A stretch of DNA of 64,000 nt from Lingula anatina. Its lineage: Eukaryota; Animalia; Brachiopoda. Under the pieces are notes generated by a model. The model was not told where the DNA came from, searched no databases, and saw only the letters and a list, made by a program, of their open reading frames with translations. A program made the position numbers and the translations under genes. Location: NCBI GenBank assembly GCA_051362555.1, contig CM120647.1, positions 6,138,001 through 6,202,000 on the forward strand. Direction: 5' to 3'. Positions 1,382-59,443 of the stretch are shown here, piece by piece. Every line of letters starts with the position of its first letter. Position 1 is the stretch's first letter.

Positions 1382-4300
1382 GTGAGTGGTATATTTTTTT
1401 CTAACCACAAGGTACTGAAGAGTTATGTGTTGAGACTTATTTGGGCATGAAGGAAGTTTTAATTTTTTTTTTTTTTTACAATTGAGTCTCATTGATGTTG
1501 CATCTCCCTCTCAGCAACTTCAGCAAATCCACTATTTAATTTTTTTTAAACTTTGGTTATGTCAAATGCTGCTGGATGACTAAGATATATACATGTAATA
1601 TCACTTCTTTAGGTATTTTTTACCTATAATTTGTACTGAATAAGATGATGCCTGCGTTGGTCAAGTTTTAGAACTGGTTTTTGAAAACCATTCCATCATT
1701 TCATTGTCATTTGAGAATGAGGCTATTGGTGTTTAAGTATTCTCGACCTTGAGACACTGAAATATTGCAGTGGTAAGAAGATTTATCAGTTGTTTGAAGA
1801 AACTATTATTGTATCTTTTAACAAAACGCAGGTGACAAAATTCTTTCTTGAAACAGTCTACTTTTTTATTACAGATCAACAATGTGGATGTGTCTGATGC
1901 CCGCCATGACCAGGTTGTATCCATGCTTACCACCATGCCCGATCACATCACCCTGGTGGTGTATAGAGAACAACTCATCGTCAAAGAACCAGACCTTGAG
2001 AAGTTCAAACGTGAACAACAGGAACAGAATAAAGTTGTCAATGCCGAACCACCTCTCACTCCACAGGAAGCAATTACAGTGCAGACGACAGTTGAAGCGA
2101 CTAATAAAATCTCACCGCCATCGCCGAATAGAGTGCAGCAGCCGCCATCGCCGGCTAAAGTTTCACCCACAGCGCCGAAAGTGCAGCCGCCATCTCCAGT
2201 TCATATCGCTCCACCAGTAGCACAGCCGAGACAAAAGAATTTTGCTTCAACGCCTGTTAGACCAGAATCACCACCGGCGCTGCAGGTGAATGTGGTCCAG
2301 ACTGTTAACGTGTCACCGGTGGCATCCCCCAAGTCTCCTTCAGCAGTTGTGAATCATGCGCCTTCAAAACGTCCAAATGAACTTGTGCCTTACTCTAGAG
2401 AGGTAGGAAGAACTACTCCTTCTGTTTTAAATTAATGACTTAATGTTTTTTCAAAGGTTTATATTTGTCCTTTAGTTTCTCATCTTCTTTAGACACTTAG
2501 TCGAAGATCTGAAGTTAATAGAATTTAACTTGACTCTTAAGGAGGATGAAGTGAATGGCTTTGAAAATAACATCAATTTTATTCTTGGAGAATTGGGTTG
2601 AATGAAACATAAATTTTGTTCTTAAAAAGTTAAGTTGAATGGTGCAGACTAAAAAGCATAAGAAAAAATAATTTGCCTAATTTTTTTAATATTTTATATT
2701 CAGGATGTACACATTCAGAAAGCAGGGGGTCCGTTAGGTCTCAGTATTGTCGGGGGCTCTGACCACTCTAGTCACCCCTTTGATGTGGAGAAACCAGGGG
2801 TCTTTGTTTCAAAGGTGAGAAAAATATGTTGATTTGATGCCTTTCTGTGCAAAAAATTTATGAATTAATTTGGCAAGTTTGTATCAGAGGTGAACAAAAA
2901 TTGATGTTAATGATGGGATAAAGATGATTTGATACGGCCTTGTATAATTAATTACGACCAAACTTGATTTGTGCGCACTGTTTCAGCCATTTCCATCACT
3001 GCTTTCATTTAAGTGCAGACCAGACTTAAACTGATACATCTATTTTTCTCGAAATGTACATCATGACAATCATATTGGTTCCAATGATTGGGATTACTTC
3101 TAAATTCACGATTTGTGTTGTTTATCTCAAATGATGTTGAGAGATGCTCAGTAGTTACTTGTAATATTTATGTGTGTGTTTCTGATGAAACAGGAAAAAA
3201 AAATAACTCAAACTATTCTTTCACACTTGCAGATTGTCCCTGAGGGTGCCGCAGCAAAAACAGGAAAGCTAAGAATAGGGGATCGCATTATAGCTGTAAG
3301 TTGGTTATTACCATGGTGAGGCTCTTTAGTGGAAAGTAACAATCACTTGCAGTATGTTGTGAAATAGGTTTTTCATTCCCTCTGGCTGAAATCAGAACAG
3401 TGGACCAACTAACCTGCGGTTCAAATCTGGTGACCCACTAAAAAGCTTGCTGTCTAATCCCCCAGTAGACACTGAATAGATTCAATGTGGGGAAGAATTC
3501 AAGAAGGTCGGCCATACTTGACCCTCAGACTAGTTAGTCCACTGTTCTGCATGCAGCTTCTGATGTAAAGATGGTCAAAAAAATATTTTGTTTCTGAAAA
3601 GATAAAATTCATCTTCCACCTTGAAAAAACCAACATTATTCAGGACATATGGCTATATTGTTAGCCTATTCTTGAACCAAGTACTCAGTTGATAATTTTT
3701 TAGAGATATTTTTCTCAGAGAGCCTATTTATTGTGAGTGTATATTTCAGGTGAATGGTAAAGACATACAGTCCGCCAGCCACCAGGAGGCAGTAATGAGC
3801 CTGATAGCGCCTGTACAAGAAATAGTTCTCACTGTGCAGCACGATCCTCCACCGCCTGGCCTACAGGTAATAGACTGATATATAGAATTTCGGGAGATGT
3901 TTTGGTTTTGATATGAAGTTATCAATTTTTTGTCTAAATTAAAAAATAATTTATAATCTACTGATCATTTTGAATGGATTTCAGACTTTAAAATAATTAC
4001 CATTGTTACTTGATATTGCTCCTTTAAGATATTATGTAATTATTTTTTATAATTTGATAAAATTTATTTCAATATTTACTTTTATTATCATTATTATTAT
4101 AATTTTAGGAACTCCATATAGACAAGGGTCCTGGTGAGAAGTTAGGAATGAGTATAAAAGGTGGCGCCAGGAGTCACCCTGGGAATCCACTTGACAAAAC
4201 GGACGAGGGAATATTTATTTCTAAGGTAAGGCAGCCATGGTGTGAATGGGATATATGGTAAACAGTATCAGCTGTTTTATTTTTGTTCATTGCCCAAATA

Positions 4301-4464: not shown

Positions 4465-5661
4465 TTGCCAGATAAATAACAATGGTGCCATTGGAAGAGA
4501 TGGAAGGCTGAAGTTAGGACAGAGGTTACTGGAGGTAGGTGACCAGTGGTCAGTTATCATGGCTAGGCAAAAGGTTATCAAAAAGGAGGAAATAAATTTT
4601 AATAATGGAAGAGAAAATGGTAGTTGCACACTGTGCATAAGTGCCCCTTACTGGCACAGGGTTGAAAATTAGAACATAAATATAAGAACTTACTTTGACG
4701 TGACTAAACAAAAAAGTTGGTATCAGTAAAAGAATAAGTAAAAGAATAAGAGGCATATCTATAGACATCCATTTTGAAAAATGTATAGAATACACATTAT
4801 AGTGAAGAAAATGCAAACAATGCCTCTTTTGGTACATATTTGTTTTTTCGTAAGTTTAATATGTCAAAACTTCATGGTTACTACTGCCACCTATAGGTCA
4901 ATGGACAGAGTCTACTGGGAGTATCGCATGTGGAAGCCGTGCGTGCCTTACGTAGTGTTGGAGACCACCTGACAGTCCTAATTTGCGATGGTTACGATCC
5001 TGTGCTGGTAGAACAGATGATGCCTGCTGCCGGAATGACGCCAAACTCGCTCAGCAGTTCAGTTTCAAGTTTAGATAGAGATGATGAAGAAAGTGCTCTT
5101 ATAAGACAGGTAAGTGGGTCAAATGTTAAATACCAGGATGTTAGGGTCAAAGGTTAAAGGTTAAGTACCATGATGTTAGGCTCATAGGTTAAAGGGTAAA
5201 AGAGCAGGCAACTTAAGTATTGGGGTTTTAAAGACATTTTATAGCAACAAACTTTTTCATTGAACTGACTAGATTTTGAGCTGCAAATTTGGAGAAATTC
5301 AATTTAAACAGTAAAACTTGTTTGTCTACCTAACAATCATCTATCAAGTGTAGATATGAAAAATCAGTAGTGCTGTTTGTTTTTTCTTGTTCACTGTGTT
5401 TGCTGCCTTAAAGTTTATATGTTTTTGCCTAATATATATTTAGCGTTAATGAACCAGTGCTGTCACAGTGCTTTGTGGCTGGTATTGTTCTTCACTGCAG
5501 TATGGGATAGATTGCCTCTGATTGGTTCACTTTATCTTGTGTTGCATGAGTACAGTGTGTTTATTATCCTGTGCCCAAAGCATTGTTTGTAAATGGTGGT
5601 CTTTATTCGCTATCTCACCCTTGCACTGAATTCTACAAATGAAAAAAATTCCTTCTCACTT

Positions 5662-5840: not shown

Positions 5841-8787
5841 CACACACACACTTACAGAGGCACCTCCTTTGTGACCTGATGTTAAGAAAAAAGTGTCAAC
5901 ACCTCTGAACTTTGCCTCACTGTGAGCGTTGCTTTTCATTCGTGTTTGCTCCAAACAGGAACAGGAAGTTGTCAAGGAGACAGAAGAGTGGGAAAAGGAA
6001 GAATTGGACAAATTGGTAAAAGCAAAGAACTTTAAAGAAAAAAGAACTTTTTTCTTTCCATACAGCTTTTTCACCCCTTTGCTGCCTTTTTGTGTTGCTT
6101 TGAACATTTTCCTTATAACACGTTTAACTCTTGCTCTCGTCTTTTCCATTTGATAAAATTTGCCAACTAGACAAAGTTGTCAACAAAATTGTTCCAGTCT
6201 CATTTAGTATAGTCACTTTGTACCACCAGTGAAGTCTTGCAGTTTTTGGGTTTTATTCTCTGAACCATTACACTTTGTGATTCGATGAAATGAAATCTTC
6301 AACAAAAGTATTTTATTGTTATTTAGGAAAAGTGAATTTTACCACAGCAAATAGCTCAAAAGACCTACTCAAGGGGTTAACTCTGCTGTATTGGAGAACT
6401 CGGTTTTTGCCTTCTTGTTTACCGCAAATTATAACAAATTACAGATTTGCTGTTGGTCATTCAAAAAAATAAAATAAATAAAATTAAGTAATGATAATCT
6501 GTGTAACGTTAGACATCAATAATTTCAACCCAGCTGGTGGTATATATGAAGAAATTGCCCCCCCCCTCCCCTTTCTGATCCACTAGTTTTTCACTGGTAG
6601 TAATTGACTTCATAATGACCATGATTCTGTATAATATTTTCAGAAACTGAGGAAAAGAATTGCAATTTGCTTTCTGATTGTAGGATAGCCTGTGTGTCCC
6701 CTTAGTGTAGCTCCTTTGTGCTTCTGTGTGTGTTTTTTAGTAGGCTGTAGATTAGTTACTACTACATAGTTCTGTGTCTTTGTAATAGATGCCTAAATGC
6801 AAGTCGGCCCTTATTTGGGAATTAACATTAACATTGTACTTTACTAAGATGTTTAAGCCTCTGTTTAATATTTCCAAAAGATAGGTTTGAATATTTTTAA
6901 CGGTCTTTTAAAGGTCTAATCTGAGTTTTTGATCCTCTGAGGGATAATAACATTTGTATATATATTTTTGTAGCACAATATTATATATATTAACTGAAAT
7001 TTTTGGCTTCAGAAAAAAAAAATTTTTTTTAAAGTATTTATACAAAGCACAAAATTGTATTATATTAATAATTTGAAAAAATTTGATCAGTAGATTTGAT
7101 AAAAATCATGATATTCTGATTAAAAAAAGACCAGTTTTGTAACAGGTAATAGAACAGAAAAAAATGTCAAAAAATATTGTAATAAGCAGTGTACTTTTTA
7201 TGTAGTGAAAAGAGGAATAGGTTTTAACTGAAGAAATCCATTGAAGTTCAACTTTTTGGAAGTGGCAAAATGATTTCTTTCTGGTTGAGGTACAGGTTAA
7301 CCAGTTCATCAGTTACAAAAACTAAAATTTTCAACTTAATTTTCATTTCAGGAGAGGATGAGGAGAGAAAGAGAAGAACAGACACGGCGCATGGAGAAAG
7401 AAACGAAAGCCACATCACCACGATCGACATCCACCAGTGGTATCCCACAGTTCAGACCCGCACTCAAAGTACACGAACAGTCCAAATCCCCTTCACCACC
7501 AGAGCGCAGCACCTCCCTCTCTTCCACAGGGATACCCAAGCTGGTGTCGCCACCTGGTGATACATCAGCACAAGGTCAAAGGTCAGGTCTTCCAAGGCCT
7601 GCTGTGGTGAGTCCATCTCAGAATGTTGGGGCACCACAAAAGACTAATATTCCGAAGCCACAGGAATATGGAGGCGGAAGGCAGCCGACATCTGCTGCAA
7701 ACCAGGGACCAATAGAAATTGTGTTCAGTGGGAAGTCTAGTATTCCAAGATTAAGTGCTGGCGGATCGCTGCCATCACGACCGCAAGGTCAAAGCTCAGT
7801 TGAGGTGGTCACGATTCCAACACCAAAGACTTCTGGGATTGCGACACCTGTAAGTGCTGCTTCTTCAGTGCCCACAAGCAATGTGACTGTTACGACGTCT
7901 ACCACGACGTCATTTTCTACCAGGCCCCCAACAGCGGTAAAACCTCCTGTGTTTCGCAAGCCAGAAGTTGGCGCAAAACCAGTTGTGCATCAGAAACCCT
8001 CCGTGCCAAAAGTCGTTGCTAAGGTGCCGGCATCAAATGCGACCAATGATCGATGGGGAGACATCAAATTCGCTGAGGAGGATGACGAGGATGAGGATCG
8101 TAAAATGGTGATATCAGCACCAGTGGTGCCACAGCAGACACAAAATTCCTTTGCCACGGTAACGGTGTCTTCTCCAGGTGCCACATCCCCTAAGGTAAGA
8201 CTGAAATGAGGGTGTCTTGTATTAAACTCCATCTTTAGTTGAGTTTCTATGAGTTATGTTAGATTGGCTTGTTTTCAACGCCATCCATCTTTTGATTCTT
8301 CTAAATGATGTTTGAATATAGGAGAACACAGAAACAAACGTTTTTTTGAAATTGATGAACTGCCTGGTGTATTAACCTTTTTGTGTGAATTTTATTTTAT
8401 GTGAAAAATGGAAAATTTTGTAGAAATTTATTTGTTATGCTGCTTTTGTCAGTAGATCATGAATATTTTGTTCCTTTGTCTTCTGGTCTTCTGGAAGTTG
8501 TCTTCTGGTTTTATTATTTTATGAAAAACCTTACATTAGAATTAGTACTTGAAAATTATATTTTTGTCCACTCGTCTGTCTGTCTTTCATTTTCCAGATT
8601 TGTAACATACTTTTTTAAAGCATGACAACATTGTGGTATTTAACCACCCAAAACAGCATGTTTTTACCCATATTATATACCCTGTACCCTTCAAACAACT
8701 AAATGTTTTAGACTTTCTACACTTTTAGCAAAAAAGGTCAAATATATACCAGGCAGTACAGTAGTTGCCTAATTATCTGAACAACAC

Positions 8788-8818
<31 letters not shown>

Positions 8819-11800
8819 AAAAAAATTGGATTTCAAAATGTGGATTCAAGAGTTTTGAAAAACTACCTAGCTCTGCATAAGAAAGTGCCTTACCTGGTTG
8901 TAAGAGCTGAAAATGAGCAATGTTTTTTTGTTTCTTTTTTAATTATTATTTAAAAGTGAGGCCTTTGAAATTTTTATTGTAGTAATAACTGTAGCGATAT
9001 TTTCCAAATTATATTTCAAACATTGAGTATCCTTTTAGAGAATCCTTGTTTCTGTTTGTAGATAGTGTGTGGCAAAATCTGTTTTATGCTTGTGTCCTAA
9101 GTAAACCTAGTAGATGTAGTTATTGTAGTTCATTTTCATTTTGTGTGAATTTTCACTTCATTTTGCTTTACAGAGTAGAATCCCCTCTCTGAGTTCATTT
9201 CAACCTATTTCGCCTAAATCACCAACAGCTCCACCTGTTGGGCAACAGACAGGACTGCCATCATCGGTTCAAAACTCAAACAACAACAATTTGGCCACCC
9301 CAACAAAGATAGCGCCACCTAGGGGTGCATTTGTGGCCAACCGTGCCTCTCCATCAGCTCCGTCTCAAATTCCAGCGCCTAGGTCTCAAATTGCGCCACG
9401 ATTTACGAGACCGAGGCCTTTTCAACCTCCTCCCACAGCCCCAAAGGTAGAAAACAATATGGAAGCCAAAACCAAAATGGCTGCACTTTTTAGTTGGGAG
9501 TAGATAGGGCTTTATGATTAACACAAACCTTGGGATATTGGGACAATTATTATAGCTATTTAGCTTCTTAACCTTAGTGCTTTCAGTTGAGCTTCATCTT
9601 AAAAGCCCCTCCCCCTATCTGAAACTCCTTGACTTAAGGATTCCTTCTTTTAAATGGGATATATAAGCCTGCACTCTGAAATATTAATATGTCCTGATAC
9701 AAATTTTTTTTTTTTGTCTTTTTTTATTTATAAATTTTATATATTTTATCAAAGTTGCAGCATTTCTTTTATACAAGGCCCTCCTTTCTTTCTATTTCTA
9801 TGCTCTCCCTACCCTAGATATGCCTAATATATGCCTAATATAATTTATTATTGCCTATGTCTTATAATAATGGCTGTTCTCTTAGTCAGATAATAATAAA
9901 TGACGCTATATTGAATAGGCCTTCTTATGTACATATACATACACATAAGCTGCAGGTGATAGACTGACAAGCTAGCCAGTGCTAGTGTTCATCAATGCTT
10001 AACAGTGGCAAGACCTTAAACACGTCATGACCTAGACTGGAAATGTGGCATTTCTCTTTCATCTTGGCCTTGGCAAAATCCTTACATTAGGAGGTTTTTA
10101 ATCTCCTGGTGAACCAACTAATAATTGCAGGGCTGAGTATTAAAAGAAGAAATTGCTCACAATGGCTTACAAATGACCTAATTGGTGTGGTGAAAGGATG
10201 GTTGCTACGGTTATAACTGAAATAGACAAGTATTGTGTGTAATACATGTGTAATAATAATAATGACAGATTAATGAAGAAAAAGGGAAAATCCTAAAATG
10301 TATATTTTTCTGTTTCAAACTTGCTTTATATAGTTGGGATGGTAGTAATTGGAAGTGGGGTCCAACTTACACAATTTAACTCAAAATGTCTTACATACAT
10401 AATATAACAGGGTCAAGTAGTGACCTCACTAATCAGTTTATTTATAGGTTAGTGTTGGCAGAAGTTTAACCAATGAGCTTCATGCTTACATGTTGCCTTG
10501 CAGTATCAGGCTTTTGATTTAAATTTATAATGAACACCATACAAATCTAGCTTATGCACCCTTAAAAATGCAAAGCAAATAAATTATTTTAAAATGTAGC
10601 ATATTATCAGTTTTTGAAATTTCTTGAAAATGTTGATTTAGTCATCAGCAAAGTAGTAAGCCAATATGCATCTGTAAATTTTTTGCAGTATAAGTTTTAT
10701 TATAAAATCAAAAGAAGAAAATAAATGATAGCATTGAATTAATGAACTTCATAAGTCGAATTCACAAGAAAATTTTACGGATAATATGTTATATTTTCAG
10801 AGTAAGATACCAACCTTTGCCAGTAAGGGAGAACTTCAACAAACAAGCAATAAGGCAACAACAGTAACTACGACGGCCAGTACCATTGGGTCAACCTCAA
10901 CTTTCTTGTCCTATCAAGGAAGGCCGCCGCGCACAGCATACACGGGCATCCCAACGCGATCGTCATACCAACAGTCAACAACTGTCGAAACCTCAGCAGT
11001 AAAAGCAGACAAACCTGCTGTGGTGAGTAACTCTTGAAATATCCAGGTCGACATGACCTAGTTACTGAGTTGCTTATCTAGCTCATTGTGACCTCATTTT
11101 GAATCACTTATGTAGGTCATTCTGACCCAGTTTCTGCTTATCTCACCATTCATGAATCAGAAATACAGGAAATACCCACTGCATTGCTGCTTATCTAGAT
11201 CAGGGAGGCCCATTTTATTGTGTTCTTTAGTTCAGGATGAACAAACTATTGAACTTATTGCCCTGGCCTATGTTCTTAATGACCTTGTTACTGCTGAGGT
11301 GACCTAGTTTTGGTTGACCTAGTTATTGCTTATGTGACCTAGTTTTTGGTGAACAAGTTATTGCTGAGTTGCTTGCCATGTTTTTTTCGTACTAGGACTA
11401 TTTGAAATTGTGTGTTGATGATTACAAAAGTGAAATATTATAAACTATGTCACTCTGCTGCTACCACAAAAATGAGAGCTGGTTGGGTCTTTTTTATTTT
11501 CAAGGACAGAATATGGTTTGAAATTGCCTTATTACGAGAGAACACGATATTCATAAGCCCTTCAATGGTTTCTTTAAACAAATTAAATTGCCTTTATTCG
11601 AGACAACTTATTGTCCATAAAACCCTTATTGTCCATAAAGAGATCTTCGCATGATACCGATTGGATTTTTTTTTCTTTTTTTTTTTTTTTTCACAATGAC
11701 GGAAGGGTAGTAATACTTGTTTTTTAGATAAAAGAAGTTTTCTCTTTTGGGTTATTTAATTTAAATGAAAGTATTTTTGTACTGTATGTAAAAAAGTTTT

Positions 11801-14256
11801 TTCAAACAGTTTTTTTAGAAAACGAAATAAAAGTTGAGCACTTTAATGCTTAGTTTTGCCACTTGCGCTTCTTAGCTCACAGATATTTAAAATAGTGATC
11901 ACACTTTATTTAAAAGAATTTATTTTAACTATTATATATATATATATATTGTCCCTCGTATTTTTTAAATAGTTTTATATGGTTTTAATTAATTTGAACC
12001 TTTCAGAGTTGACACTGTATGATGGGCTGTTTTTACGAGTTGTGAAGTTTATTTCCTTTACGTTATATAATATCTCCGACTATGCTCCTAAATGATTAGA
12101 TTTATTTTACAACAAGACAAAATACTTATTATTATAATTATTATTATTATACATTTATATATGCTGACATTTAAAGAAAATCAGTTTTATTGATTTTATG
12201 CATACAGTGCAGTTCTGAGATTAGAAAGAAAAATATGTGGAAAAAGATTCTCACAAAATTTTAACTAAGTTAGGCATATTGGTCAAATGGTTATTGTAGT
12301 AACCTATGCTTAAAGAAAAATCAGTTTTAACAAAATATGTCAGTTTAATATTTTAGTACTAAACAAGATGTTTTACCTTTTTTTTTTTACTTAGAACTTT
12401 TTTAAAGGAACATATCTTAAGGAAATTGATATTGAATTAATCTCATCTTTTCTCAAATCTGCGCTGTATTTCTCCTGCAATGTGAATTTATGCTTTTGTA
12501 TGTCTGTTGTTTGTGCTTTGTAACCTTCTCAAACTTGTATATAAGTTATTTACATATGACTGGAGGGTCATTCTGTTACTGAAGTAGAAATTGAAGATTG
12601 ACTGTAAATGACGCAACTGAAAATGACTGCACGGATGTGAATATGGTATAATTTCACTTTCACTTTGTACTTAAATATGCATACGTTTTAAGAACTTTCT
12701 CGTCTGCACATTGTTTTGTCAGTAACTGTTGTTTTTGTAAAGTAACCTCTGTCCATCTTTTAAACTCTTTCATTTAAAAATATATACATAATTCTGTAAT
12801 AGGTGAAATTGGCACGAAAAAATCTGGCATTAAATAGGTCAATATTACCTTTTTAATAAATAGGTCAGTGTGACCCATTTATGTTGTACATATAGAACTA
12901 GGTCAAGGGAATTTTTTCACGTTAAAGGATTAGATAGAATCATTGTGGTTGAGATTGCGCCCTCTCAGCCATTTTTATGGGTATGGCAGCATATGTATAG
13001 TGTATTCAGTAGTACTAGAATAGAATTCTGGTGACCTTTTTGTGCAATTAATAGCAGGATCTCTCACCATATAGATCATATTGAACACCTTAATGTCCTT
13101 AACAAGAAAATATTGATATCCATATGGTATTCCAGTTGGACACTCACTGATGTCAGTATTTATTATTTCAAAATTGAACATATTGAAAATCAGTGTAGAC
13201 TTGAAATTGAACAAATTCATGAATAAAATTATATAATGTATGTGACAGTCATTAATTCAATTTTGTAATGAAAAATTTATGGTCAATATTTAAAGTCCAT
13301 TTGAAATATGTAAGTGGTTATTATTGCTTTCCATATGGTCCAATATTATTCACTGTTGATGTTTATGTAAAGCCTGGCTACAAGCTAAAAAAAAAAGGGA
13401 TGTAATATCAAAATGAAACTCTTTTTAGCAGTAAGGGCATTGTAAAATAGGTGATAATTTTAATTGACCAATGTGTATATCTAAACTACTGCAGATGTAT
13501 GTTGCGCTGTATTTAATAAACTTAACAAACATTTCAAATATCCATAAAGACATGGAATTATTTATACATACAAGCATTCAGGTGAAAAAATTTGTTTTTA
13601 AGTGAAGAATTTGAATACTAAGCAGATAAACCAATGAAATGAAGTGGACTTCTTTTGTTTCAGAACATTGATGTACTGTATATTTATAATTTTTCTAAGT
13701 CAACTTTTACTATAGAAAATTTGACATTCAAGCCATATTTGTTCTGTTGATTAAAGGTTCATATTTTAACAAACACCCAGATTTTAACAGCAAGGTTTTA
13801 CATGTGATTTATTAAAAAAAATTAGTGATTTTAAAGATCATTTATTGATTAGCATGTTAAGCGAACAAATTGTTGAAAACATTTCTTATCAAACTCTATG
13901 TAAAATATGATGTACAAAGTTATAATTCCAGTAAAATAACTGATCCTTTGGGAGAACCAGAAACGTGTTTATTGTCACTTTTAAAGGATGAATTAATATT
14001 TTGAATAAGTAAATCAGTAAATGTGGAACCAAATTTGTAGGGTACATGTACGACACGAAGATAACAGTGGCAAATCTTTATGTAATTTGTGATTTGAGAA
14101 AAGGATATACTTTTTGCTTGAAAGAAAAACAAGAAATATATTTTTAAAATGAAATGAATCTATCTATCTATTTACAGGGATAACAACTCTTCATTTTGGC
14201 AAGAAAAGTGACATAAAGTAGTATTTTTGGAGCAAATGGCAATTCTCATACTGACC

Positions 14257-14302
<46 letters not shown>

Positions 14303-17300
14303 GTAGCCATATATGAAGGTCAATGTAATCCAGTGGCAAGCAAATATTTCAGAATAATTACGATAACTGCTGTTTTGATGGTTAAATTGAATTGAATGTA
14401 TTTCTGTCTATTGTTTTCAATGTATTGCAGATTTCTTAAATCTTATATGAAGAGTTGTTATTCCTTTAGGCAACAAAAATTTGAAAACCATTTGAAAAGC
14501 TTAAACTTAATTTAAGAAATATATATTGTATTTTGATCAGCACATGAACTTCAGAAGTAAATGCGAAATTTACAAAAAAAAAAAAACTAATAATATAAAA
14601 TATCCACAATGAGGAAAATTTGCACAAGTGTTACATTGAGACTGACTTAGAAATTAGTCTAAATTAGACACATATAATTATGCACAAGTAATAAGAAGAT
14701 GTATTTAACACTGTATTTATTTATGTAGACTATATACAGGATAATTGAGACAGTGTCTTTAACCCTTTGATTTACATGAACTGATGAAAAACTTCCTATT
14801 AAAAAGATTGACCCAAACCCAGAGAAGGATCCAGAGATATTATCTGATAGTCTTGCAAATTATCTTTGTTGATCCATCCTCCATTTTTGATTGCCTTCCG
14901 ACAGAAAAATCAGATATCCATCAATGTAAACAAAAATGTGACCATCTTTCGGAAGACCCAGAATATGGTTTTAATACGCCCCTGAAACCAGTTACTCCCA
15001 AAAAATGAAGAAAAAAATATGAATTAAAAGTAACTGTGCAGGGCACTCAGTGCCACAGCTTGATAAAGCAGGGGCGGATTGAGGCCGTCTTCTGGGTACT
15101 CCCGAAGTCGGTCAGATTTTTAAATTAACGTTGACAGGTATCAAATTGTTTGTGTCAGAAGACAGTAAGGGAGGATGGATCAACAAAGATAATTTGGAAG
15201 ACTGTCATGAAATTTCTCTGGAAATATCTCTGTAAAGGATCATACCTCTGTGGGTCTGCCTTTGCGTCGGAATATTTTCATAAATAATACAAATTTTGCT
15301 CAGACATTTTGTGTTGGAAAGCACTCTTCAGTTTTGAAATCAAACTTTATGGTGCTCCATGCCTGATGACCCCCCCCCCCCCAAAACCCCCCAACCCCAT
15401 CCCCACCCCCACCAACCCCCAATTGCAAATTACCAATTTTTCATAACATTCCACCGTCCATACATTCCAACTATGATAGCAGAAGAACAACATTTCTAAC
15501 CAGCCAGAAACGTTTTATTAATCATAGTACAAACAAAGGATTGACGCTTACAGATTGGCATTGAGGCATATTTTACATGTTATTAAGGATAGACTAACAC
15601 TGTTTATGACCATTGGTAGTAGAACTTAAAACAGTGGAGCGTCACCGCGTCTTTAGCATTTGTAGCTAGGACAGAAATTGAACAGCTAATTTAGTAGAAA
15701 TAGTTTGTCATCATGTTTTATGTTGTGATCAGTACAGTGTATGTACATATATTAAATGTTATAGATAAATTCATTTGGAATTTTTTTTTGCCCTAGTAGT
15801 CTAATAATTATAATCTTACATATAATACCGAAAATATTTGAAAATTCAAATTGTGACCAAATCTAGAGCATTTGTGATCGGACAGTTACAGAATGGCTTC
15901 TAATATGTGTTTAGAAAGTGCTTTGACAGGACCTCTTAACATCTAAAAATTATAGTTTCATTGGACCTGAAAACTTATATTGAACAAATATTCATGTAAA
16001 TTAGATTAGTAAAGAACACAAGAAGTTTTTTTTTTTTTTTAATTATGAGGGGAGGGGAGGTATCTTGGTTTACATCAGTAGATTTAAATTTAAAGTCTAT
16101 CATGATAAAAGTAAAGCCATTTCACATCGTGTGGTATTCTTTACTTGACCAGTTCACACTCAGAGGTCCCACTTGGTCTCTTACATTATAACATAAAATT
16201 AACAGGGATTGTGAACAAAAACCTTCAACAGGACGGGATGAAAAAGCAAATCTAATTTACTTGAATATTTTTCAACTTAAATGTTTGATAGTGCAAGTCG
16301 GACCCGTTTTCAGGTTAAACAGTTCTGTCTGTACCCAAACTTAGGGCATGCTTGTTGGTCCAATTCTGATGGGCCCCTTAAGATATATTAATTGGTGATG
16401 GAGCATGGTGGTTATCTTGAACTCTGCTGACGATTTTTCTCCCTTGTTGTTTTGAGTGCATGCACAGTTTGATCAACATTTAGACTGCATTTTAACCCTG
16501 AGTGAGATGCGGTGCTAATGTTACTAATTTAACAATTGGTTTACAATGGGATATTTTTTCTAGAGGTTATGATTTTGCTCATTGTAAAGTATAAGAGTTA
16601 CTTGTCTACAAATAAAATCGATTTTTATTTCTGAACTTTGTCATTTGGGTGGAGATGTGTGAAAAATGAGAAGATTTTAATTTTATCTGTTTTGCTGTGA
16701 TATATTATTTTTTAAAACTCCACAAATGACGGGGCTTCTGAAGCTACTTTTACCGATTTTGTTTTTGAAAAAAAGAAAATGAAATATTCAGTTGAAAATT
16801 TTCAGTTGAAAATTTACTCAAAAAGAAAAAATATCCCTGGGGTTTTAACTTCTTATTATTTTATAGTATTATTTGGATTGATCTCTATGCATGCTGCTGC
16901 TTCACAGGAAAGAACCCCATAGCAACCATCTCCATGGTGACACTTAACAATCAATGTTTGGCAGTTGTCTCAATAGTTACAATTCCAAATGATCAAATAT
17001 ACAATTTTTCCTTTCACTTGAAAGTGATCTGATTGTGTGAGATATTTGCAACTTGCTACAAATCTAAAATTTGAAAATTTATTTTTGTCAACATGGACAG
17101 AAAACAAATCAGATTAAAATCAAACCACTGATCAAAAAAAGAAGAAAAAGAAAAGAAATGGAAGACCAAGTAAAAAAAAACCTTGGAGATTGTTTTTAAA
17201 AAACCTGCACACATAGTAGCAGCATGTTTGTGTGCCATATGAGCTCTAACTCTACTAACTTTCTCTCTCTCCTAACTGTCTGGGCTGCACCCTATAGATC

Positions 17301-19307
17301 TCCTCCAACACATCATCAACTGTCACATCTACCACACTCATAACAACAACCAATCAGGAGCAAGGTCAAGGCCAGGAAGTGCCACCCAAGAAGATCCCAC
17401 CCCCAGTTCCTGAGAAAAAATGGAAACGTTCTTCAGTTGCTTCATCGTGTGACTCCATGCAGAGCTCAGTTTTGTCCATAGAGGGCGATGATAGCAATGA
17501 TGAGATGGTGGACCCTGTCAAGCAATCCCGCGTACCGAGTGGAATGACCAGCAAAAGGAGATCTCTGGCAGATGCCGAGGAGGTAAAATAAGTTCTGTTC
17601 TGTGATTGGTCGCGTCCTCATAAAGGTAATTTTCTGAATAATTGAAAGCAGTGCGATAATTCTAACATCTGTGTAATCATGGTAAAAAACTAGTCAGTTT
17701 TCTTAGGAGATAAAATGTGTTTTCAGGCTATGGGACAGGATGTTTCAACCCTTCTTCACCAAAGGGCCTTGATCACTGGCCTGACTCATCCAGAAAACAC
17801 CTTTAGTCTTTTCAGAAACAATTTACTTTTTTACCATCATTATACTTGATAAAAAGAAAAACTTAGTTCACTGCATCTGTGTTATCTTTCGAAGTTTGAA
17901 CATTAATATCTGACATTTTACTTGCCATGATGTCTTCAGCTACTAGAATTTTTCATGACATTAACTGGTAATGTTAACTATATGGTGATATCACAGCCAA
18001 CTAATAGTGAACCCCATAAAACTTTGCTAGTGATGATGTCACTGTCTTATATCCCTGAGCACTTTCAATGACACTTTCAATGGCATCGGACTTGATGACA
18101 TCACCACACAACTTGATGACATCACCACACAACTTGATGACATCATCACTTTTGATAACAATTTCATGTCCTCACATCTGACTGAAATGTGAAATGTTTA
18201 TTTCTACACAAATCTGGAATGCCACTCACATAATTTTCATTTTGGTCCTTTGGGTATGCATGGTGAATTGTTCCTAATTGCACAAGCCCGCCATCACTGG
18301 GGCAAGGTGGGGTGAGGAATTTTGCCTTTGGGTCTGTGCAGGCAAGGATATATTTAATCTGGAAATGGGAAAACTTGTGCTATTTGTCACAAACAGCAGG
18401 GGGATTCCATTTCTTTTGAAGATTTTTCTAAGAGCATGTTTATCATATTTACTTACATTTTCTGTTAAGTATATATCATAATATGAAACATTTAAATATA
18501 TATAAAGAAGTCATAACTAAAATGGGCAAAAAAGATGCCCTCAAACAAAACATTAAATCCCTTGATAGATCCTGCTGATTTGCAGATAATACAAGTTTAC
18601 CTCATTTTCGGTCTGAATTTATCCTTGTCTGAACAGACCTTTAGCTACAACCCATTGCACAAGGTTTCTGGTCCTGTCCAAAGGTGGCACCAACTGTTGC
18701 ATTTTATGCAAGGTCCAGAACATTGAATTGCAATCAAGTGGGTGCCTATGCAGCTTAATTACATTGTTTTGTGGAGAGAAATGCTCAATGTTTATGTTGT
18801 TATGCTGAGCAGGCTTTGGTTAGATTACAATTAATGTTTTTTTAATCATACTGATCAAATTGAATTCAATTTTTTTGATGATTGTTGAAAATTTTAGGAA
18901 AAGAGCCTGTGTGACATATTCATATCAGTATATTTTTGAGGGGTACATTTTAGATTGTTCATTATGTTTTGATACTGTGGATATGATAGAAATGTATATA
19001 TTTATGATAATAGTGTATTATGGCACTAGTGCATTTTACAGTGTCCAAACATATTTACATTATGAATTATTTCCATTGACTTGTAGCTTATACCAGAAAA
19101 ATTTTTCACACTACATATAGCAATAAAGTTGTTTTTTGCTAAGTTAAAAGGTTGTGTTAGGTCAAGAAGCCATTACGTAAATTATTTGTCTTCTGCTGAA
19201 ATAACCATAACCATCCCGAAAAGATAACCCCAAAGTTATCACTGAATTTGTTTTGGTAGATACCATTTCTTTTCTGTTTTGTTTCTACAAAGATAAAAAT
19301 TGGGTAT

Positions 19308-19359
<52 letters not shown>

Positions 19360-22300
19360 TTCCTTGTGATTAGGGAATATACAGTTGCTGTACTTTGTCA
19401 GGAACAAATTAGAATTAAAAGGATAAATTTAAGCATAACAATGGTGTTTGCTATATTGATAAAAATCAATAAAATTACAGAATCCAAAACTATTTCTATG
19501 CCACAATCCCTAGGGATCTATCCCATAATCCTGTGAGATTCCGCCATCTGCAGCAGAACGTAACATCTGGGCTGTGAAGAATCATTGGCAACTTTCCTCA
19601 CAGCCTGGGAAAAAAAGCACTCATTGTTATTCACTAATTAAGTCTCTCATTAAGCCCTGAATGAAGAGTGTTTTACGACTAAAGGTTGGAAAAAGAAAAA
19701 TTACAACACTACAGTCATTAGCATTTATATGGTCTTTTTGTGAGGTAACATGATCTTGAATTGCATAGTATAATTATACGTTTTAAGGGGCTAATTTGGT
19801 GTTTTATCAGAATATTTATATTTTTATTCTTCATTAGTTTTTGAGCCAAATGACCCATCAGTAACACAGATATTCAGCAATTGGTAAATACACAGAAAAA
19901 CAAGACAGATTAAACAAATAGAAATGGATAGTAGACATTAGTTCCTTTTAGCTTAAATGATTTTAAAAGCAGAGTTGTCTTTAAATTGTAAGAATGGGTG
20001 TGTATTTAGTTTGTGAAGAAATGTGAGAAAGCAGCGATATGGTTCAAAAAGAGAATCACAAACAGTGACATCAAAAACTTAACACAGTTTGATTGCAGTA
20101 TTGTGGAATGCAGAATGTTACACCATACTCCTTCACTTTTTCTAATAATTTTTGCTTGAATAATGAAACTTTATTTGATGTGCAGCTTTTTCAAAAAGGC
20201 TTTTTGGCCAACTAATGCGTTATGTGTGGCTGCTTTAAATATACCAGCACCAAGGACTTTTAACGTGCAAGGGTTTTTGTATTTCTGTCGGGCTTGGCAG
20301 CCATTTTTTGGCTACGTATTTCCAGTTGCCCTAAGTCTTCACATTGGCGAGTTAACAAAGTGGATTCTGAGGCCCTATTGAACCTGAGAGAGAAAAACTG
20401 ATAAAAGGGATGATTTCAAGGTTCTAAAAATTTTGCCTGTACTGTTTGTTAGGATATATTTCATGTTAGGAAATGAGAAGACGACTAGAGCTGAATGTTC
20501 TCTCATTTCATCTTGAAAAGTCTCATTGCCCCAAGTCTCATTCCCTCATGACTTCAATTAGTCTGATTCCCTATCTAAGTTAGTTTTGATGTGAATGTAT
20601 CCAGTTACTGTAATGATAAAAGAAATTGATGAGAAATTGATTTATGTCATGAGCTCTTAAAATTGCTGCATGTTAATGATGAAGGTTTATGTACAGTAAA
20701 TCACCAATAAAGGTTAAATTGTGAATAAGAATTAAAATTTCGAACCATTGACAGAATAGAACTCCTTAAAAATTATAGGATGTCTACTTTAGGAATTCGC
20801 GTACAAAACACCATCTGAATACGTACTGCATTTGTATTCCACAGGAACACATGGATTTTGCTGATGTAAATGCTAAAATGTGTACTCAAAATGGGTCAAT
20901 ATCAAAATGTGACCAAAAGATCTCTCTCTCTCTCTCCCCCCCCCCCCCCCCCCAACACACACACACACACACACACACAAACGATTTTGATATGTCTGTG
21001 GAAGACAATAGAGAGTGACAGTATTTAAAAAAAAACTTAGAAAAGCCTGCTGTGTGGGATGATGATTCATGCTACTGTAATTACTCTATATTTTCAAACA
21101 TCTTACTTTCACTACCATTACATTTTCTCAAGATTTATCATTTTCATTTACTCACAAATATACAACTTTCTACAAAAAACCAGCTAATTTTTAAAAAAAT
21201 TATTAACCAAATCTAAGAGTAGTATTTATAAAGCAGTGGTTTGTATGAAATTATGAAATTATTTTGTTCAAATTTATTGAGTAACTATGGTAGTAAGATA
21301 GCACAATGATCAATAACAAAGTCTGCTGACTGTTAGAAGTGAACTCGGACGTTACCATTAGAGGATAGACAGTGCAAGTGAGACGTTGGATGATAAGGTG
21401 GGACAGAATATATGTTATATAATATACAGACACAGAAAATATTAGAATATACAAAAAAAAAAGGTGTGGATATTGTCTGCTATTATATGCTAACAAAAAT
21501 GATAGAATATGTGAAAAAATATGGGGGTATTATTTTACAAAATAATGCAGACAAAAATATTAAAACTTTAAAAAAAGATGAGATATTATGTTATATTATG
21601 GGGATATTATTTTATGTAATATGCAGATAAAAAGTTTCATGCAACAGCAAAAATTTTCATGTTACAACAAAGATAGATATTATATAATGCAGACAAGATA
21701 TTAGAAGTTGAATTGTACCCTTGTGCTTAAAAATTGGATAGTTATGGCACATTTATTTGAAAGATTTAACTTGGTGATCTGATAATATGTTTTAATGTTC
21801 AGAAAATTGTTTACCATCTACTTATTTCGGTTTGTGCTATAAACTTGAAAATGTGCTGTACTGGCTGTTGTTATACTTGTATATTATACGTTTAATTAAT
21901 GTCCAGGCCTACCCAACTACCAGACTCGGCACCGAATGATCCTGAATTCACCAGTAGATCAGACAACACTACTCGTTTTCAAGGTGTGAGTCAGTACACA
22001 CTTCGAAGTATCAGACGCAATACCGCTCTTGCCTAGTACACTCTGTAATAGGGATGATTCTGGGTGGGGTTGGAAAGTAGTGCATCTCATCTCAAAGTTT
22101 TTTCCATGGTATGATACTGTGAAATGCGTACTGATGCACACCTTGAAAACAGGTAGTGTGGTCCGATTTACCGGTGAATTCGGGCTCATTCGGTGCTGAG
22201 TCTGGTAGTTGGGTAGGCCTGAATGTTGAAAAACCTCAGTAGCATAGAGCACATGTAAATGTAAAGTGCTCTATTTATTATTATCATTAAAAGACACCAA

Positions 22301-25300
22301 CATCCTTGTTATGAAACATGTTGTTGGGCTACTCCTGTTTAACTTGGGTCAAAGAAGACATAGTAAATCTTCGCTTCTAAGTTAAGACCAATTTCTGAAC
22401 TAGAGTTCTCTGGTGATACAGGTTCCAGATCTAAGAATATTTTAGTCTTATTTTAAGAAAAAGGGAATATTTATAACCTAAGTCTTTAAATAGCTCAATG
22501 TATCAGCCAAAGAGTTGAAGAAATATTTAGTGTGATTATTGATCTCCCCTTAGGCAATGTGGTCTGTAATTAAATTACAGGGTATTCAAAGTCAGCGTGA
22601 TGTTGATTAGCATCTGTCAGAGAGGTTTGATACTATATGGGCTAGATGAATGTATTCATTTAGTATAGATTTCTTTAGAAGTATCCTCTGACTTTGTATA
22701 TTGTGTCACTCGAAGATTGTTCAATAGTATGTGTCATTGTGCGTCAAGCTGAATTATTTTACCAGTGGTATCTGTACAGTGCGTAAGTCATAGGTGCCAT
22801 TCACAATAGAGGACTGACTAGTCCGAGGGTCAAATATGGCGTCCCACTTGAATACTTCCCCATAGGATATCTATTCAGTGTGTATTAGCAGATTAGATTG
22901 CAAGCTTTGTAGTGGGTCGCCATGTTTGACCCTGGGGCTGGTTAGTTTCCTGTTTTGAATGGGGCTATAGATACTGCAAGATGTCTGGAGTTTATATGAA
23001 AATAATACATGATGAAGTTGTTGTTGTGGCATTTCATTTATATTTTTAGTGAAGATTCTGCTATGCATTTGTAGTTTGTAATTTGCAGACATAAGGACTA
23101 CCTATTCAAGAAGTATGAAGGACAAAAATCCATTTTTCTTGGCATTTTTAGACCAATCACAAGAATAAGAAATGGAAAGAAAAACAAAGGTCTATTTTTC
23201 TTAGCATTTATCCTACAAGTCCCCACCAAAAACCAAAATCAACAATCTTTTCTAGACCTAGAACAGGAAAAAAGGACCAAAATTTTTCCCCAACATTTAA
23301 GCCCATGACCACCCTTCAGAAAACCAGCCTCAAAAATCATTTCAGGAGAAGAAATAGGAAGAAAGGCAAGTCAATTTTTTTTTCAACATTTTCAGCCGAC
23401 AAGTCCCCACCGCAAATCTGAAGTATCAAATATGGAGAAGCTGCCCTTCAGTGCCAAGAAAAAATATTTTGAGGAGGAAATTGAGCATCAGGGACAGACT
23501 CAACCGGCAGAAGGTTAGTAGCACAGGGAGTTGGGATATATCTGGTGTGAGACTAATTGACTTGAGTTGAAGAAGTCAACTTTTTGTGTCAAAATGAATA
23601 AAGATGATATTTGACGAAGGTCTCTGACAGAAAAAGTGTCACAGTTGTATCCAAGTTGTGTTTTAGGAAGCATTTATTTAATAAAAATTTAACACACTGG
23701 TTTGATTTGTACAATAGTGGATTTAAACTAGCAGTTCAGAAGATGTTTGAGGATTAGGAAAATCTCAAGTTATCCACAAAAAATTGTAAGCCACTTGGGT
23801 AAAATAAGTTAAAAACAAGTTCCGTTTTATATGTTTTAGAAAAGAAATTCAGTTTCTTGACTCCTGATGAGATACAGAAAATAAAGCTGGAAGAAGGTAA
23901 GAAGTAAATTAAATTAAACTGCAAGCATCAGATTTAGCTGTTTATAAATTTTATTCATCTATTTATTTAAAAAAAAACATGGAATTTAACTTACAATAGC
24001 TATGAACACAATTCTTGGCTTGTAAATGATTTGCATAATTTTATCCAAATTCACTTCAAATGATTGCTTTATTAAATCATAACTAAAAAGCATCTGCTCA
24101 TATAATATCAGTTTTCTTCATCTTAAGGTGCTTTCCCAGAGATTTAGATCGATCTAAAGATAAAGTTTTAGATCGACCTAACGTACTCCCTGGGGGTTCA
24201 CGCTAAATTGCAGTCAGCCAAGCGGGTACCATAGTTAATTACCCCCTTACAGCTTTTAGTGGGCGGGACAGACGCTTAAGCTGGCCAAGCTGACAGTAAT
24301 CTAGTGAGACTCCCCACAAGGATAGATCGATCTAAAAATCTATGGAAATGGGGTGTTAAATTATCAGATACAAGATATTGCTGTATGTCTCAAAAAGAAC
24401 ATGTATCTTGAAATTTCATTTAACATTTAGTAACTTATAAGATGAAAATAATTTAATTATGAATTTAATTATATTCAAATTTAAACAATCAACCCTCAAA
24501 TGAAAAAAGACATTGAAATTTGAGACAATAAATCAGTGTTAGCCGTTGTTTAAGGAATCTATTCAGGGGCGGATTCAGAGATATTTTCTGACAGTCTTCC
24601 AAATTATCTTTGTTGATCCATTCTTCATTTTTGACTGTCTTCCTACAGAAAAATTAGATACCCGTCAATGTAAACTTGAAAATCTGACCGTCTTCCGGAA
24701 GACCCAGAAGACGACCTAAATCCGCTGCCCTGCTATTATCATAACCCTGATAGCATATCACAGTTAAAAGAAAAAATCCTCTGCTGGGTATTCAAATGTA
24801 GTTTTCCTTCCTCCATCAGAGAAGAAGATGCTGTCCATGTCCCAAGAGGAGCTGATCTCTTACATGAAGGACCAAGGGCAGACCACTCCAGAGCAGAAAG
24901 ACATGAACCAGGTGCTTTCTAGGTAGGTTGGTTGAAGGCTTGAGTCTTTTTACACATCCAAGCTCCAGTTTGTGAGATTGGCAACTTATTTATCTGGTAT
25001 TATGTAAGAGAGTCGCCTAGACAGCGCTTGACACAGGCAGTTAGCAACAAGTCTAAAAAACCTTTTCATGTTTAGCATTTCTGTTTTCTATACTGCTCCA
25101 GATAAACAACTTAATATTACATGATAAAGTCACCTAAATGGATTCCCCCCCCCCCTCCACCGTACTCGACACAGCCATTTAACCAGTTTAACTTTGTGAA
25201 AGGGAGTAAAAACCTTCGTAGCAGAATGACATGTTCAAACCAGTCAAATTGTTGCTGATCAGAAAACTGTAGCGCTCAAGAAATAACCATATCTGTTTCA

Positions 25301-28300
25301 AGCTGACTTGATCCATTGTGAATTCTAAGGGTCGTGCATCCTTACCATAATTACCCATTTTTTAGAAATGTTGATTTGATGAAAGTGTTTATATGAGTGA
25401 TAAACACTTTGGAAACATTACTAATTCTTGATTCTCTTTTCCTTTGATTTAGCTTCAAATTCAGGTACTTACATTTCTGCATGTAGTGGGAAGTTTTCAT
25501 AATATGTGAATGAACAATTTTTGTAAGGTGTAGGAATAAGTTTTCATTTTTGTATCATTGGTTGTTGTGTGTTCTTGTAAAAGTGTATATGAAATCATTG
25601 TATGGAGTGGGAATGCAAGTTTACTTTCAGTTTGGACTTGAATGCAAATATTACTTGGTGCCTGATCTTCACACAAAGTTGCCTGTTTATTGACTATTCA
25701 TGACTGAAAGTTCTGATTTAGCTGATGAAAATTCTGAAATTTGAATAAATTTGACATTAAGATTAAATTATGATGACATGAGATTTTACAAATTATAGAC
25801 AGAATTACAATGTTTAGCTCTCATGTTGAGGAAATGTTTGTGCTCATACTATTTGTACATTAGCGTTCAGTATTGTGTGAATTTATTTTGAAGTTCATTC
25901 TTTGTTTCGAAACTTTTATGTTTATTTTAGTAATATTGCATGGTATCTGGATGTTTGTAACAGTGTTGTAAGAATAATCATTGTATAAACTGCTTGGAAT
26001 TCAAAATGTCATATTGAGCTTGGTCAAAATGCCAAGCAAAATCCATCAAAAAGTCTTGACTTAAAGTAAAAACCAACCTCATTTGATACTTATCAGAACT
26101 ATATTTTTATGTACAGACACAGATGTGTCTGTACATATTGCCATCACCTGCGTCTGTCGTCGCCGTTCATGTCGCCGTCGATGTCGCCGTCGCCGTCGCC
26201 GTGCACTTTCAGCGTTAACACCATAAGTGGAAGACAGTTTTACTTTTTGGCTTTATATTTACAGAGCTGATGAATATTCATAAAACGCAGGTCAAGTTCG
26301 AAAATCAGCATGATCGGGCCATTATTGTAGAATTTATGCTGTTTTTTCACTTTTCAGCATATATACAACACTGTTAACACATTTCAAAGAAAACCGATAG
26401 GCCTGTTGTCATGAAACTCACAGGAGTAATCAATCTTACTAAAACGCAGGTCAAGTTCAAAAATCGGCATGATCGGGCCACCATTTTAGTGGTTATGCTG
26501 TTTTTTCACTTTTCAGCATATATGCAACACTGTTAACACATTTTAAGGAAAACCCATAGGCCTGTTGTCATGAAACTCACAGGAGTAATCAATCTTACTT
26601 AAACGCAAGTCAAGTTCGAAAATCAGCATAATCTGGCCATTATTTTATAAGTTATGCTGTTTTTTCACATTTCTTCAGATTCAATTCTTAGGCATGTTAA
26701 CAGTCTCATTATTTAATTAATAAGATACGTAAAAGTGTTTGTTTGACATTTCCTGCATCTTTACAACATTGTTAGTTGATTATGTAAAAATGATGGTAAA
26801 CTTGTTATCGTATATTGTGTAATAAAGTGTCAAAAATGGAAATAAACTCATATCATTGCAGTTTGTAAGATTCAATCATTCATTATGATCAGAAACTCAG
26901 AATGGAGGAAATTGGACATTTGACACTGTTCTATTGATATTTTCCCCATCTCATTAATTTTCTTAGTTGATCATATAAAAATGGCATTAAACTGTTAATT
27001 ATTGTACCACCAGCGTTAGCGCTGGCGGTACACATGGTTTCGGTCCCGTCCGGATCGTTCCGCCGGCTCCGTTGGCTCCGCCGGCTCCGCCGGACGGCTA
27101 CCGTTACCGCTTCTCCTCCTAGATGGTAAGGGCCCCCGTACCCATCTCATGGATTTAGGTCACCTATAATCTCAACTCGTTCCACGTAAAATTTGGGCTT
27201 TGTCGGTATTGGGGTCTGGGTGTGGCACTCATTGCAATGCACCCTTGTCTAAAAATGGCAAAATTAAATGCTAATTATCTACCCTACGGAAGGAGTTATG
27301 GGAAAAATTTCTATAGACGGCTTTCCAAAAGTCATATGTGTAGATTTCAAATATACCCTTGGATTTGACCTTTGACCTCTACTTCAAGGTCAAATGGGCC
27401 AAAATTTTCAAAAAAATGAAATTTTTTACGAAAAAATTTTTTTTTTCCCTGTTATTCAGACACCACACAGACTTAACCAATAATATTATTGGAAAGTGTT
27501 ACCCTTCAGGTCATCTTTCATCTCCATGAATTTGGGGTCAATCGGTGCATTTTCACGGGAGTAGCGGCCATAAGATACCGAAACTGAAAACTGTCTCTAA
27601 TTCGGGAACCGTTAATGCTAGAGACCCATTCTTTTTTGCATTTTGTAGAGCATGTAAAGCCCAACACTGGAGGTGGTCTCGGTTTTTTTGTATTCCATAC
27701 GGTTTTCGAGTTACGCTGTATCAAAAAGTACATATTGGTGGTAAAAGCAAAATGTGCAGTACGGTAATGGATAAAAAATTTTGAACTCTGGAAAAATAAA
27801 ACATAAGGCTTGGCAAAGCAGACAACTTGTGTTCAAAAATGACATTATTTCATCAAATTTGAACTTCTGAAACTTCAGAGCACCTCCTATTTCAAGAATT
27901 TTGACCAAAATGACATTTTCTTTATTTTAATTAATTTTTTCTGTACGAAATTTAAGGCACATTATGGTAACTCCAAAATTATAACATCTAGTCCCTTATA
28001 TCTCCTGGCAGAGATAGGTCCATAGTTACTATTGAAGTTGAATATGAAGTCATATACTGGCAATCTTACTATGACCTTGAAATTGACCTTTGACCTACTT
28101 TTCACCATGAACTGAACTTTGCAAATTTTTCTTCCCTTTTATCTCCAAAACTGGCAGAGATAGGTCCATAGTTACTATTGAACTTGAATAGGAAGTCATA
28201 TACTGGCAATCTAAATGTGACCTTAAAATTGACCTTTGACCTACTTTACACCATGAACTGAACTTTGCAAATTTTGCTTTCCTTTTATCTCCAAAACTGG

Positions 28301-51320: not shown

Positions 51321-51692
51321 TGTTACTGGGGAGAGAAATGCACTAAATGATTTTTTTTTCAGTTGCATTCTTTGCCATACCTTACTGGCCATTCGGATCT
51401 CAACCTTCTTAAAATTTATTGCTTTGATTCAGGATTCACCGATCTGAATAAAAAATTCAATACAACTTGACTGGATTGCTTTAAAACATTATTATTAACA
51501 AGACCTTGACATTTTTAGAATCATGATGTAACAGTAACATTAAAAATTAAATCATATCAAAAGCGTTTTTGAAAACCAAATAATAATTAGTATGTCAGTC
51601 ATTTATTACACAGAAAATATTAGAAATATTGATACAACAAAGGATTGGTAATTCAAACAGTCTAAAATAATTGGGAAATGTTACCGTTTTAG

Positions 51693-59410: not shown

Positions 59411-59443
<33 letters not shown>

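Follow-up and report, generated by a model that had tools for sequence, protein, structure and literature searches.

We analysed a 64,000-nucleotide stretch of the Lingula anatina genome (GenBank assembly GCA_051362555.1, contig CM120647.1, positions 6,138,001 to 6,202,000 of the forward strand; hereafter the window), whose plus strand carries the exons of a scribble gene from the end of PDZ2 to the WRAAR box (Table 1). The leucine-rich repeat (LRR) region, assumed from orthology, and PDZ1 lie upstream of the window. The gene is identified as Scribble (LAP4) by its PDZ3-4 exons, which are 73.6% identical to Elysia lap4/Scribble over 193 aligned amino acids, by the best homologs of its PDZ exons, which are Scribble/lap4, and by the WRAAR-box exon, which returned Scribble proteins when used as a query. 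The last PDZ exon gave a weak Pfam PDZ match, under the cut-off. In a PDZ3-4 tree of 52 rows, a panel holding no named annelid, no supported clade took in the window, its placement was weakly outside the molluscs, and identities reached at most 65%. An earlier note on this DNA, made from the letters alone, had proposed that three exons behind PDZ4, here called A, B and C, belong to scribble and encode an array of SxIP motifs, the signal by which proteins dock onto end-binding (EB) proteins at growing microtubule ends; both the homology results and the RNA joints described below bear out the identity of the gene and the splicing of these exons into it.

Exons A, B and C have open frames, AG/GT flanks and phase 0-0, and contain exactly the ten [ST]-x-[IL]-P motifs that had been listed, with B and C beginning at SRIP and SKIP, respectively. 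The 5′ end of exon A encodes a conserved helix start that matches the corresponding stretch in frog and amphioxus Scribble, and this start corresponds to the amphibian stretch leading into the first SADH motif. The 446 residues of A-C comprise 40% Ser, Pro and Thr and carry a net charge of +28, in agreement with the description of the sequence as basic and Ser/Pro/Thr-rich. When compared with composition-shuffled sequence, a check that the earlier note had proposed for itself, the array stood out clearly: ten motifs (5+3+2) against 1.06 expected, with none of 20,000 shuffles reaching ten and a maximum of 6. For the single exons, 3 (A), 82 (B) and 97 (C) of the 20,000 shuffles were as high. Ser or Thr occupied position -2 in 10 of the 12 [IL]P dipeptides of A-C (binomial P 5e-5), and S.IP was the most enriched single-letter X.YZ pattern, an equally strong pattern being found in 29 of 1000 shuffles. 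The second residue of the ten motifs varies (G, G, G, N, S, R, G, Q, K, G), so that the common part is [ST]x[IL]P alone. The window's own Pro-rich PDZ2-3 linker exon contains no such motif.

The surroundings of the motifs were scored with the SxIP-9AA rule, which, in the form given by PMC3649978 and PMC9877351, requires X1-X4 to include a basic residue and X1-X6 to be free of acidic ones. Six of the ten motifs have this context, against 0.31 expected, and six were reached in none of 20,000 shuffles; acidic residues are scarce beside the motifs (1 of 110 flanking residues, P 0.011). A Pfam search with exons A-C gave no domain match and a PDB search with exon C gave no match. Recent tandem duplication as a source of the motifs was rejected, as the exon pairs align like shuffles (162, 119 and 93 of 500). 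The DNA repeat finder placed no family over the motifs among the 20 of 28 families listed, and neither this search nor the exon alignment revealed a trace of duplication outside the four-residue cores. At least 34 allelic variants fall in A-C; among the 34 listed, 20 are synonymous and 14 non-synonymous, and the two indels listed in exon A both preserve the frame.

Table 1 Positions of scribble exons, motifs and other features of the window (counted from its first letter)
Feature	Position	Strand	Support or remark
PDZ2 end, PDZ2-3 linker, PDZ3 and PDZ4 exons	1301-1381, 1875-2402, 2704-2814, 3233-3295, 3750-3866, 4109-4225, 4472-4534, 4897-5109	+	AG/GT, phase 0
Alternative micro-exon, 57 nt (conserved acidic helix after PDZ4)	5959-6015	+	3 X1 reads micro-exon to A
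Exon A, 281 aa (ERMRRERE helix start, then 5 motifs)	7352-8194	+	AG/GT, phase 0-0; RNA depth, joints
Exon A motifs	SGIP 7436-7447, TGIP 7526-7537, SGLP 7583-7594, TNIP 7643-7654, SSIP 7736-7747	+	translation
Exon B, 91 aa, 3 motifs	9174-9446	+	AG/GT, phase 0-0; RNA joints
Exon B motifs	SRIP 9174-9185, TGLP 9249-9260, SQIP 9363-9374	+	translation
Exon C, 74 aa, 2 motifs, composite internal/terminal	10801-11022	+	AG/GT, phase 0-0; RNA joints
Exon C motifs	SKIP 10801-10812, TGIP 10942-10953	+	translation
Read-through at exon C donor: 4 codons, stop 11035-11037, 3′ untranslated region of ~2.6 kb	11023-13660 (end approximate)	+	RNA depth, translation, AATAAA at 13222 and 13515
Exon D (Pro-rich block, one SRVP, the SxIP-like motif common to molluscs)	17298-17582 (candidate acceptor)	+	D to E RNA joints, motif match
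Conserved C-terminal exons E, F, G	23396-23513, 23840-23896, 24820-24922	+	RNA joints into E, F to G; boundaries
WRAAR-box exon (the box binds SHROOM in human SCRIB)	32247-32405	+	sequence; returns Scribble proteins
Dispersed repeats in scribble introns	~14800-15150, 21900-22250, 24150-24750		many RNA reads on both strands
Repeat in inverted arrangement	near 24185-24337		possibly a miniature inverted-repeat transposable element
Tandem array in scribble intron, 146 bp	28005-30583		17.7 copies, 94% matches
Two intron-containing NADPH-dependent FMN reductase paralogues	42204-44591, 58237-60103	-	PF03358, E 1e-16; 62-73% protein identity
Degenerate repeat block containing recurrent open frames, downstream of scribble	~49100-51350

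RNA reads from 8 of 9 listed runs (X6 was left out; 6-30% of each run was read) were aligned in two sets, X1/X4/X7/X9 and X2/X3/X5/X8, to two stretches, neither of which contains the PDZ4 donor at 5109; allelic differences may have lost some reads. In X1, a direct joint from 5109 to exon A is supported by 26 reads, and 3 further reads pass via the 57-nt micro-exon (loose ends). Joints from A to C were counted 60, 6, 6 and 6 times in X1, X4, X7 and X9, those from A to B 0, 0, 10 and 14 times, and those from B to C 3, 7, 8 and 9 times, which corresponds to an inclusion of exon B ranging from ~2% to 65% on small counts. The second set (X2, X3, X5, X8) gave 82, 71, 4 and 5 A-to-C joints; its tables, crowded by reads from dispersed repeats, list 15 of 51 joints, and B joints are not among these. 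Exon B is a true cassette, and the motif count is 7 when it is skipped and 10 when it is included. The earlier description of the region as an array of cassette exons holds for B, whereas the RNA joints gave no case of A or of C being skipped on its own.

The fate of exon C proved to be the larger switch. Its donor is joined to exon E at 23396 by 11, 7, 2 and 1 reads in X2, X3, X5 and X8, with 9 loose ends in X1 and 3 in X9. In X2, X3, X5 and X8 the reads also continue past this donor, with depths of 20, 19, 4 and 14 at position 11050 and of 41, 47, 17 and 12 at 11119. In the stranded libraries, sense-strand coverage extends without a break to about 13660, while next to no reads fall in the A-B and B-C introns. 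The read-through isoform appears to be a short Scribble terminating at the array, without exon E onward and the WRAAR box, and among array-bearing transcripts it appears commoner than splicing from C to E. The number of motifs, which the earlier note had attributed to exon skipping, does change from 10 to 7 when exon B is skipped. Within exon A, an in-frame donor-like site at 7606/7607 lies in a stretch (7598-7612) of which 15 nt are identical to the exon C donor, and an allele at 7609, present in the animals from which the RNA came, turns it into GTAAGT; its use would remove two motifs, and no joints from it are among those listed.

Exon D is joined from its donor at 17582 to 23396 by 17, 7, 0 and 2 reads in X2, X3, X5 and X8. 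No joint from the A, B or C donor to D was seen, all loose ends behind C in X1/X4/X7/X9 belong to exon E, and the 5′ part of exon D has no depth in X2, X3 and X5. Since none of these donors was seen joined to D, exon D is probably reached from upstream of A, which would yield an array-free isoform, judged across different runs. Transcripts with exon D may also begin at an internal start.

To place the array among other Scribbles, the tails behind PDZ4 were compared in 129 Scribble proteins, reduced to 58 rows by taking the longest tail per species name; three multi-PDZ matches that are not Scribble, six additional isoforms from two arthropods and those library fragments that lack PDZ4 were left out. 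The rows comprise 41 molluscs, seven arthropods, six amphibian-type and two sponge-type proteins, and a short isoform each from amphioxus and a hemichordate. Arrays at the same position were present in 6 of the 58 rows, each unmatched in 400 shuffles, namely (core motifs/motifs passing SxIP-9AA) Elysia crispata 16/9, Elysia marginata 11/7, Mytilus galloprovincialis 9/9, Mytilus trossulus 9/8, Mytilus coruscus 8/8 and the mytilid-like protein P0153 10/10; the Elysia gene models are single gene predictions. In the equally Ser/Pro-rich PDZ2-3 linker, taken as a control in 51 of the 58 rows (11,184 aa), there are 5 SxIP-9AA motifs against 6.45 expected. The array is therefore not particular to this lineage, of whose Scribble the earlier note had spoken. 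As to the conservation that the note proposed as a check, Mytilus and Elysia have arrays in the corresponding place, but the motifs do not match position by position in any of the retrieved homologs.

The listed isoforms of single species follow the same division. Of 15 in Mytilus, 13 have 8-10 motifs and 2 have 1-2; in M. trossulus, isoforms X8 and X9 carry 9 motifs and X10-X13 carry 2. No array occurs in the isoforms listed for Pomacea (15), Littorina (15), Babylonia (14), Patella (15) and Mercenaria (13), all with zero motifs, and Haliotis, Biomphalaria, Mya and Dreissena (15 each) have at most 1 motif. In oysters there is a single S[KR]IP, which lies on a segment that the shorter isoforms lack. 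In four frog species (P0148, P0152, P0174, P0182) an SGLP that passes SxIP-9AA directly follows the first SADH motif; this segment is missing in one Pelobates isoform, the salamander has no such motif, and a single motif is within chance. Short isoforms that stop 85-149 aa past PDZ4 in a few unique residues, resembling the window's read-through isoform apart from the array, are also annotated in Pomacea, Littorina and Babylonia (P0185, P0198, P0212, P0215, P0218), and early termination after PDZ4 may, given these array-less forms, predate the arrays.

A second, SxIP-like motif of the exon D type, written as [KR]x[SA][RK][ILVMHQK]P[SATM][AG] and derived post hoc from the same sequences on which it was scanned, occurs in 32 of the 41 mollusc rows, in 0 of the 17 others and once in exon D of the window, mostly in a non-canonical form. 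In Mytilus the array is built from repeats of this motif, in the canonical S-R-[IL]-P form, and looks like an amplification of the mollusc-wide motif, which the window would have kept once. In Elysia the array lies upstream of a single exon-D-type copy, just as exons A-C lie upstream of D in the window. The arrays of the window, Mytilus and Elysia are dissimilar outside their cores and sit on separate tree branches among array-less taxa, for which independent gain in the window, in mussels and in Elysia is the simplest and a likely reading of these sequences.

An expressed and alternatively processed SxIP array in Scribble, recurring in two mollusc lineages, is thus real, and the question is what it does. 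SxIP docks into the EBH pocket of EB, and efficient recruitment to comets needs multivalency, as only dimerised peptides reached nearly all comets (PMC12695022). We consider it probable, with moderate confidence, that the A-C tail would act as a multivalent EB-binding segment by which cortex-bound Scribble catches growing microtubule plus ends. This reading draws on the excess of motifs and of SxIP-9AA contexts, the recurrence of exactly [ST]-x-[IL]-P with few acidic neighbours, the lack of a recent repeat, the RNA joints and read-through, and the arrays at the same position elsewhere, which in Mytilus some isoforms carry and others lack. Scribble would be held at the cortex through its LRR region, assumed here from orthology, which targets Scribble to the membrane (PMC4350421). 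Its basic, presumably disordered Ser/Pro/Thr-rich tail, with 7 or 10 SxIP-type motifs, is predicted to bind EB at several sites together, and these 7-10 weak sites, distributed along 355-446 residues, would let Scribble contact several EB dimers on an arriving plus end and retain it. Isoform choice would then set both the number of sites and the presence of the SHROOM link, the WRAAR box being known to bind SHROOM2/4 (PMC10626209), and three products would be at the gene's disposal: a short one that captures microtubules, a long one bearing both array and WRAAR box, and a long one lacking the array. By prediction only, Scribble in this animal would work like an SxIP-class plus-end-tracking protein (+TIP).

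Several results weigh against this proposal. Four of the ten motifs fail SxIP-9AA, all for want of a basic residue and none through an acidic one, the context fitting EB ligands for the other six, and basic residues are no more enriched beside the motifs (17 of 110) than in the region as a whole (P 0.17). The FoldIndex of A-C falls just below zero (-0.03, against +0.20 for PDZ3-4), and 6 of the 10 motif windows are negative. The three variants in motif codons are all synonymous, and none of the 14 non-synonymous variants hits a motif residue where about 1.3 would be expected, a comparison of little power. The array is absent in 35 of the 41 mollusc rows and in all 17 other rows, and none of these 52 rows exceeds 4 core motifs or 1 qualifying motif. 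Exon A had no homolog among longer proteins or metagenome contigs and no usable ESM Atlas match, no homolog of A-C was found beyond the helix start, and the arrays elsewhere cannot be aligned site by site. Those of Mytilus and Elysia are repeat-like, and therefore their motif copies are not independent. In addition, three Theileria proteins with good-looking SxIP motifs failed to track plus ends (PMC3649978).

Given these points, other explanations have to be considered. The motifs could bind EB or microtubules while Scribble does not anchor tips at the cortex, as comet-borne Scribble, in +TIP condensates or by lattice binding through basic charge. The charge of +28 over 446 residues, the entry of SxIP ligands into EB1 condensates through multivalency (PMC12695022) and a short isoform that is without the known C-terminal actomyosin link all speak for such a role, but this isoform keeps the PDZ domains and presumably also the LRR membrane-targeting region (PMC4350421), and the specific [ST]x[IL]P pattern favours the EBH pocket over charge alone; we regard this explanation as unlikely. 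No more probable is that the motifs serve another partner, the ligand or a kinase of an older motif of spiralians, [KR]x[SA]R[ILVM]P[SAT][AG], frequently with Ala in first and Val or Met in third place and hence not canonical SxIP. A pattern of this kind, drawn from the same sequences, is mostly non-canonical in the mollusc rows and exon D that have it, and the Mytilus array is made of its copies. On the other hand, the window's ten motifs are without the Arg and share only [ST]x[IL]P, and the copies amplified in Mytilus and Elysia are canonical S[RK][IL]P.

We think it very improbable that A-C is neutral low-complexity sequence in which old internal duplications raised the motif count with no selection on binding. 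The region is of low complexity and polymorphic, with 14 of 34 listed variants non-synonymous, it has no alignable homolog, and most sampled Scribbles do without an array, all of which would fit. Against it stand the shuffles, none of which attained ten motifs, the clean record of the sequence outside the cores as regards duplication, and the recurrence of this motif class at the corresponding place in separate lineages but not in the equally Ser/Pro-rich control linker. Cortical capture of plus ends by the A-C tail consequently remains the reading we favour. A wider version, in which an old EB-type motif behind PDZ4 in spiralian Scribble gave rise to at least three independent arrays, with splicing and intronic polyadenylation switching between short tip-catching and long SHROOM/actomyosin forms, is possible, though we put it forward tentatively and doubt it more than we believe it.

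On this wider version, Scribble would be a direct capture site for microtubules at the cortex of these animals, for example in spindle positioning or in neurites. A multivalent SxIP array would give a basolateral polarity scaffold a direct handle on plus ends. Scribble differs between lineages in its tail, and recurrent gain at a single site together with isoform control would make it a clean test case for short linear motifs rewiring an old scaffold. We located no published account of Scribble as an EB ligand or plus-end linker in a search that most subscription journals lay outside, and the supplements of Jiang et al. 2012 could list SCRIB; one review has passages on Scribble and, separately, on SxIP.

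Compared with SxIP-class +TIPs (MACF, APC, CLASP, STIM1, MCAK, the Navigators and Theileria p104), the window shares the [ST]x[IL]P core and its setting, a low-complexity sequence that is basic and rich in Ser and Pro. Navigators have 1-4 qualifying motifs (PMC9877351), whereas the window has 5-6 qualifying among 7-10, on a LAP polarity scaffold whose EB binding is predicted. The Scribble models of Mytilus and Elysia (XP_076084778.1, GFS11251.1) likewise place 8-16 core motifs between PDZ4 and the C-terminal blocks, variable among isoforms in Mytilus; they differ in being repeat-like, with S[RK]IP cores and no alignment to A-C, and the Mytilus array expands the exon-D-type motif. The names listed for these Scribbles hold no EB-binding annotation, and none of the 15 listed Mytilus members is a read-through-type isoform ending at the array.

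With human SCRIB and Drosophila Scribble the window shares the order PDZ2-PDZ4, the helix after PDZ4, the C-terminal blocks and the WRAAR box, as well as an alternatively spliced C-terminus with short cytoskeletal motifs; in the fly, the WRAAR box is on an alternative exon found in 8 of 18 transcripts (PMC10626209). The SADH spectrin motifs are vertebrate-specific (PMC4350421). The pattern Y-[KR]-x-[FL]-A-A-[ILV]-P has 0 matches in exons A-E and is present in all 6 amphibian or amphibian-like rows, and exon E as a carrier of this motif was ruled out by consensus and pattern test. Where amphibian Scribble has its first SADH motif after the helix, the window has an SxIP array of 7-10 copies. The known tail motifs of SCRIB link it to actin/spectrin and to SHROOM-ROCK, whereas the array of the window is predicted to link Scribble to microtubule tips.

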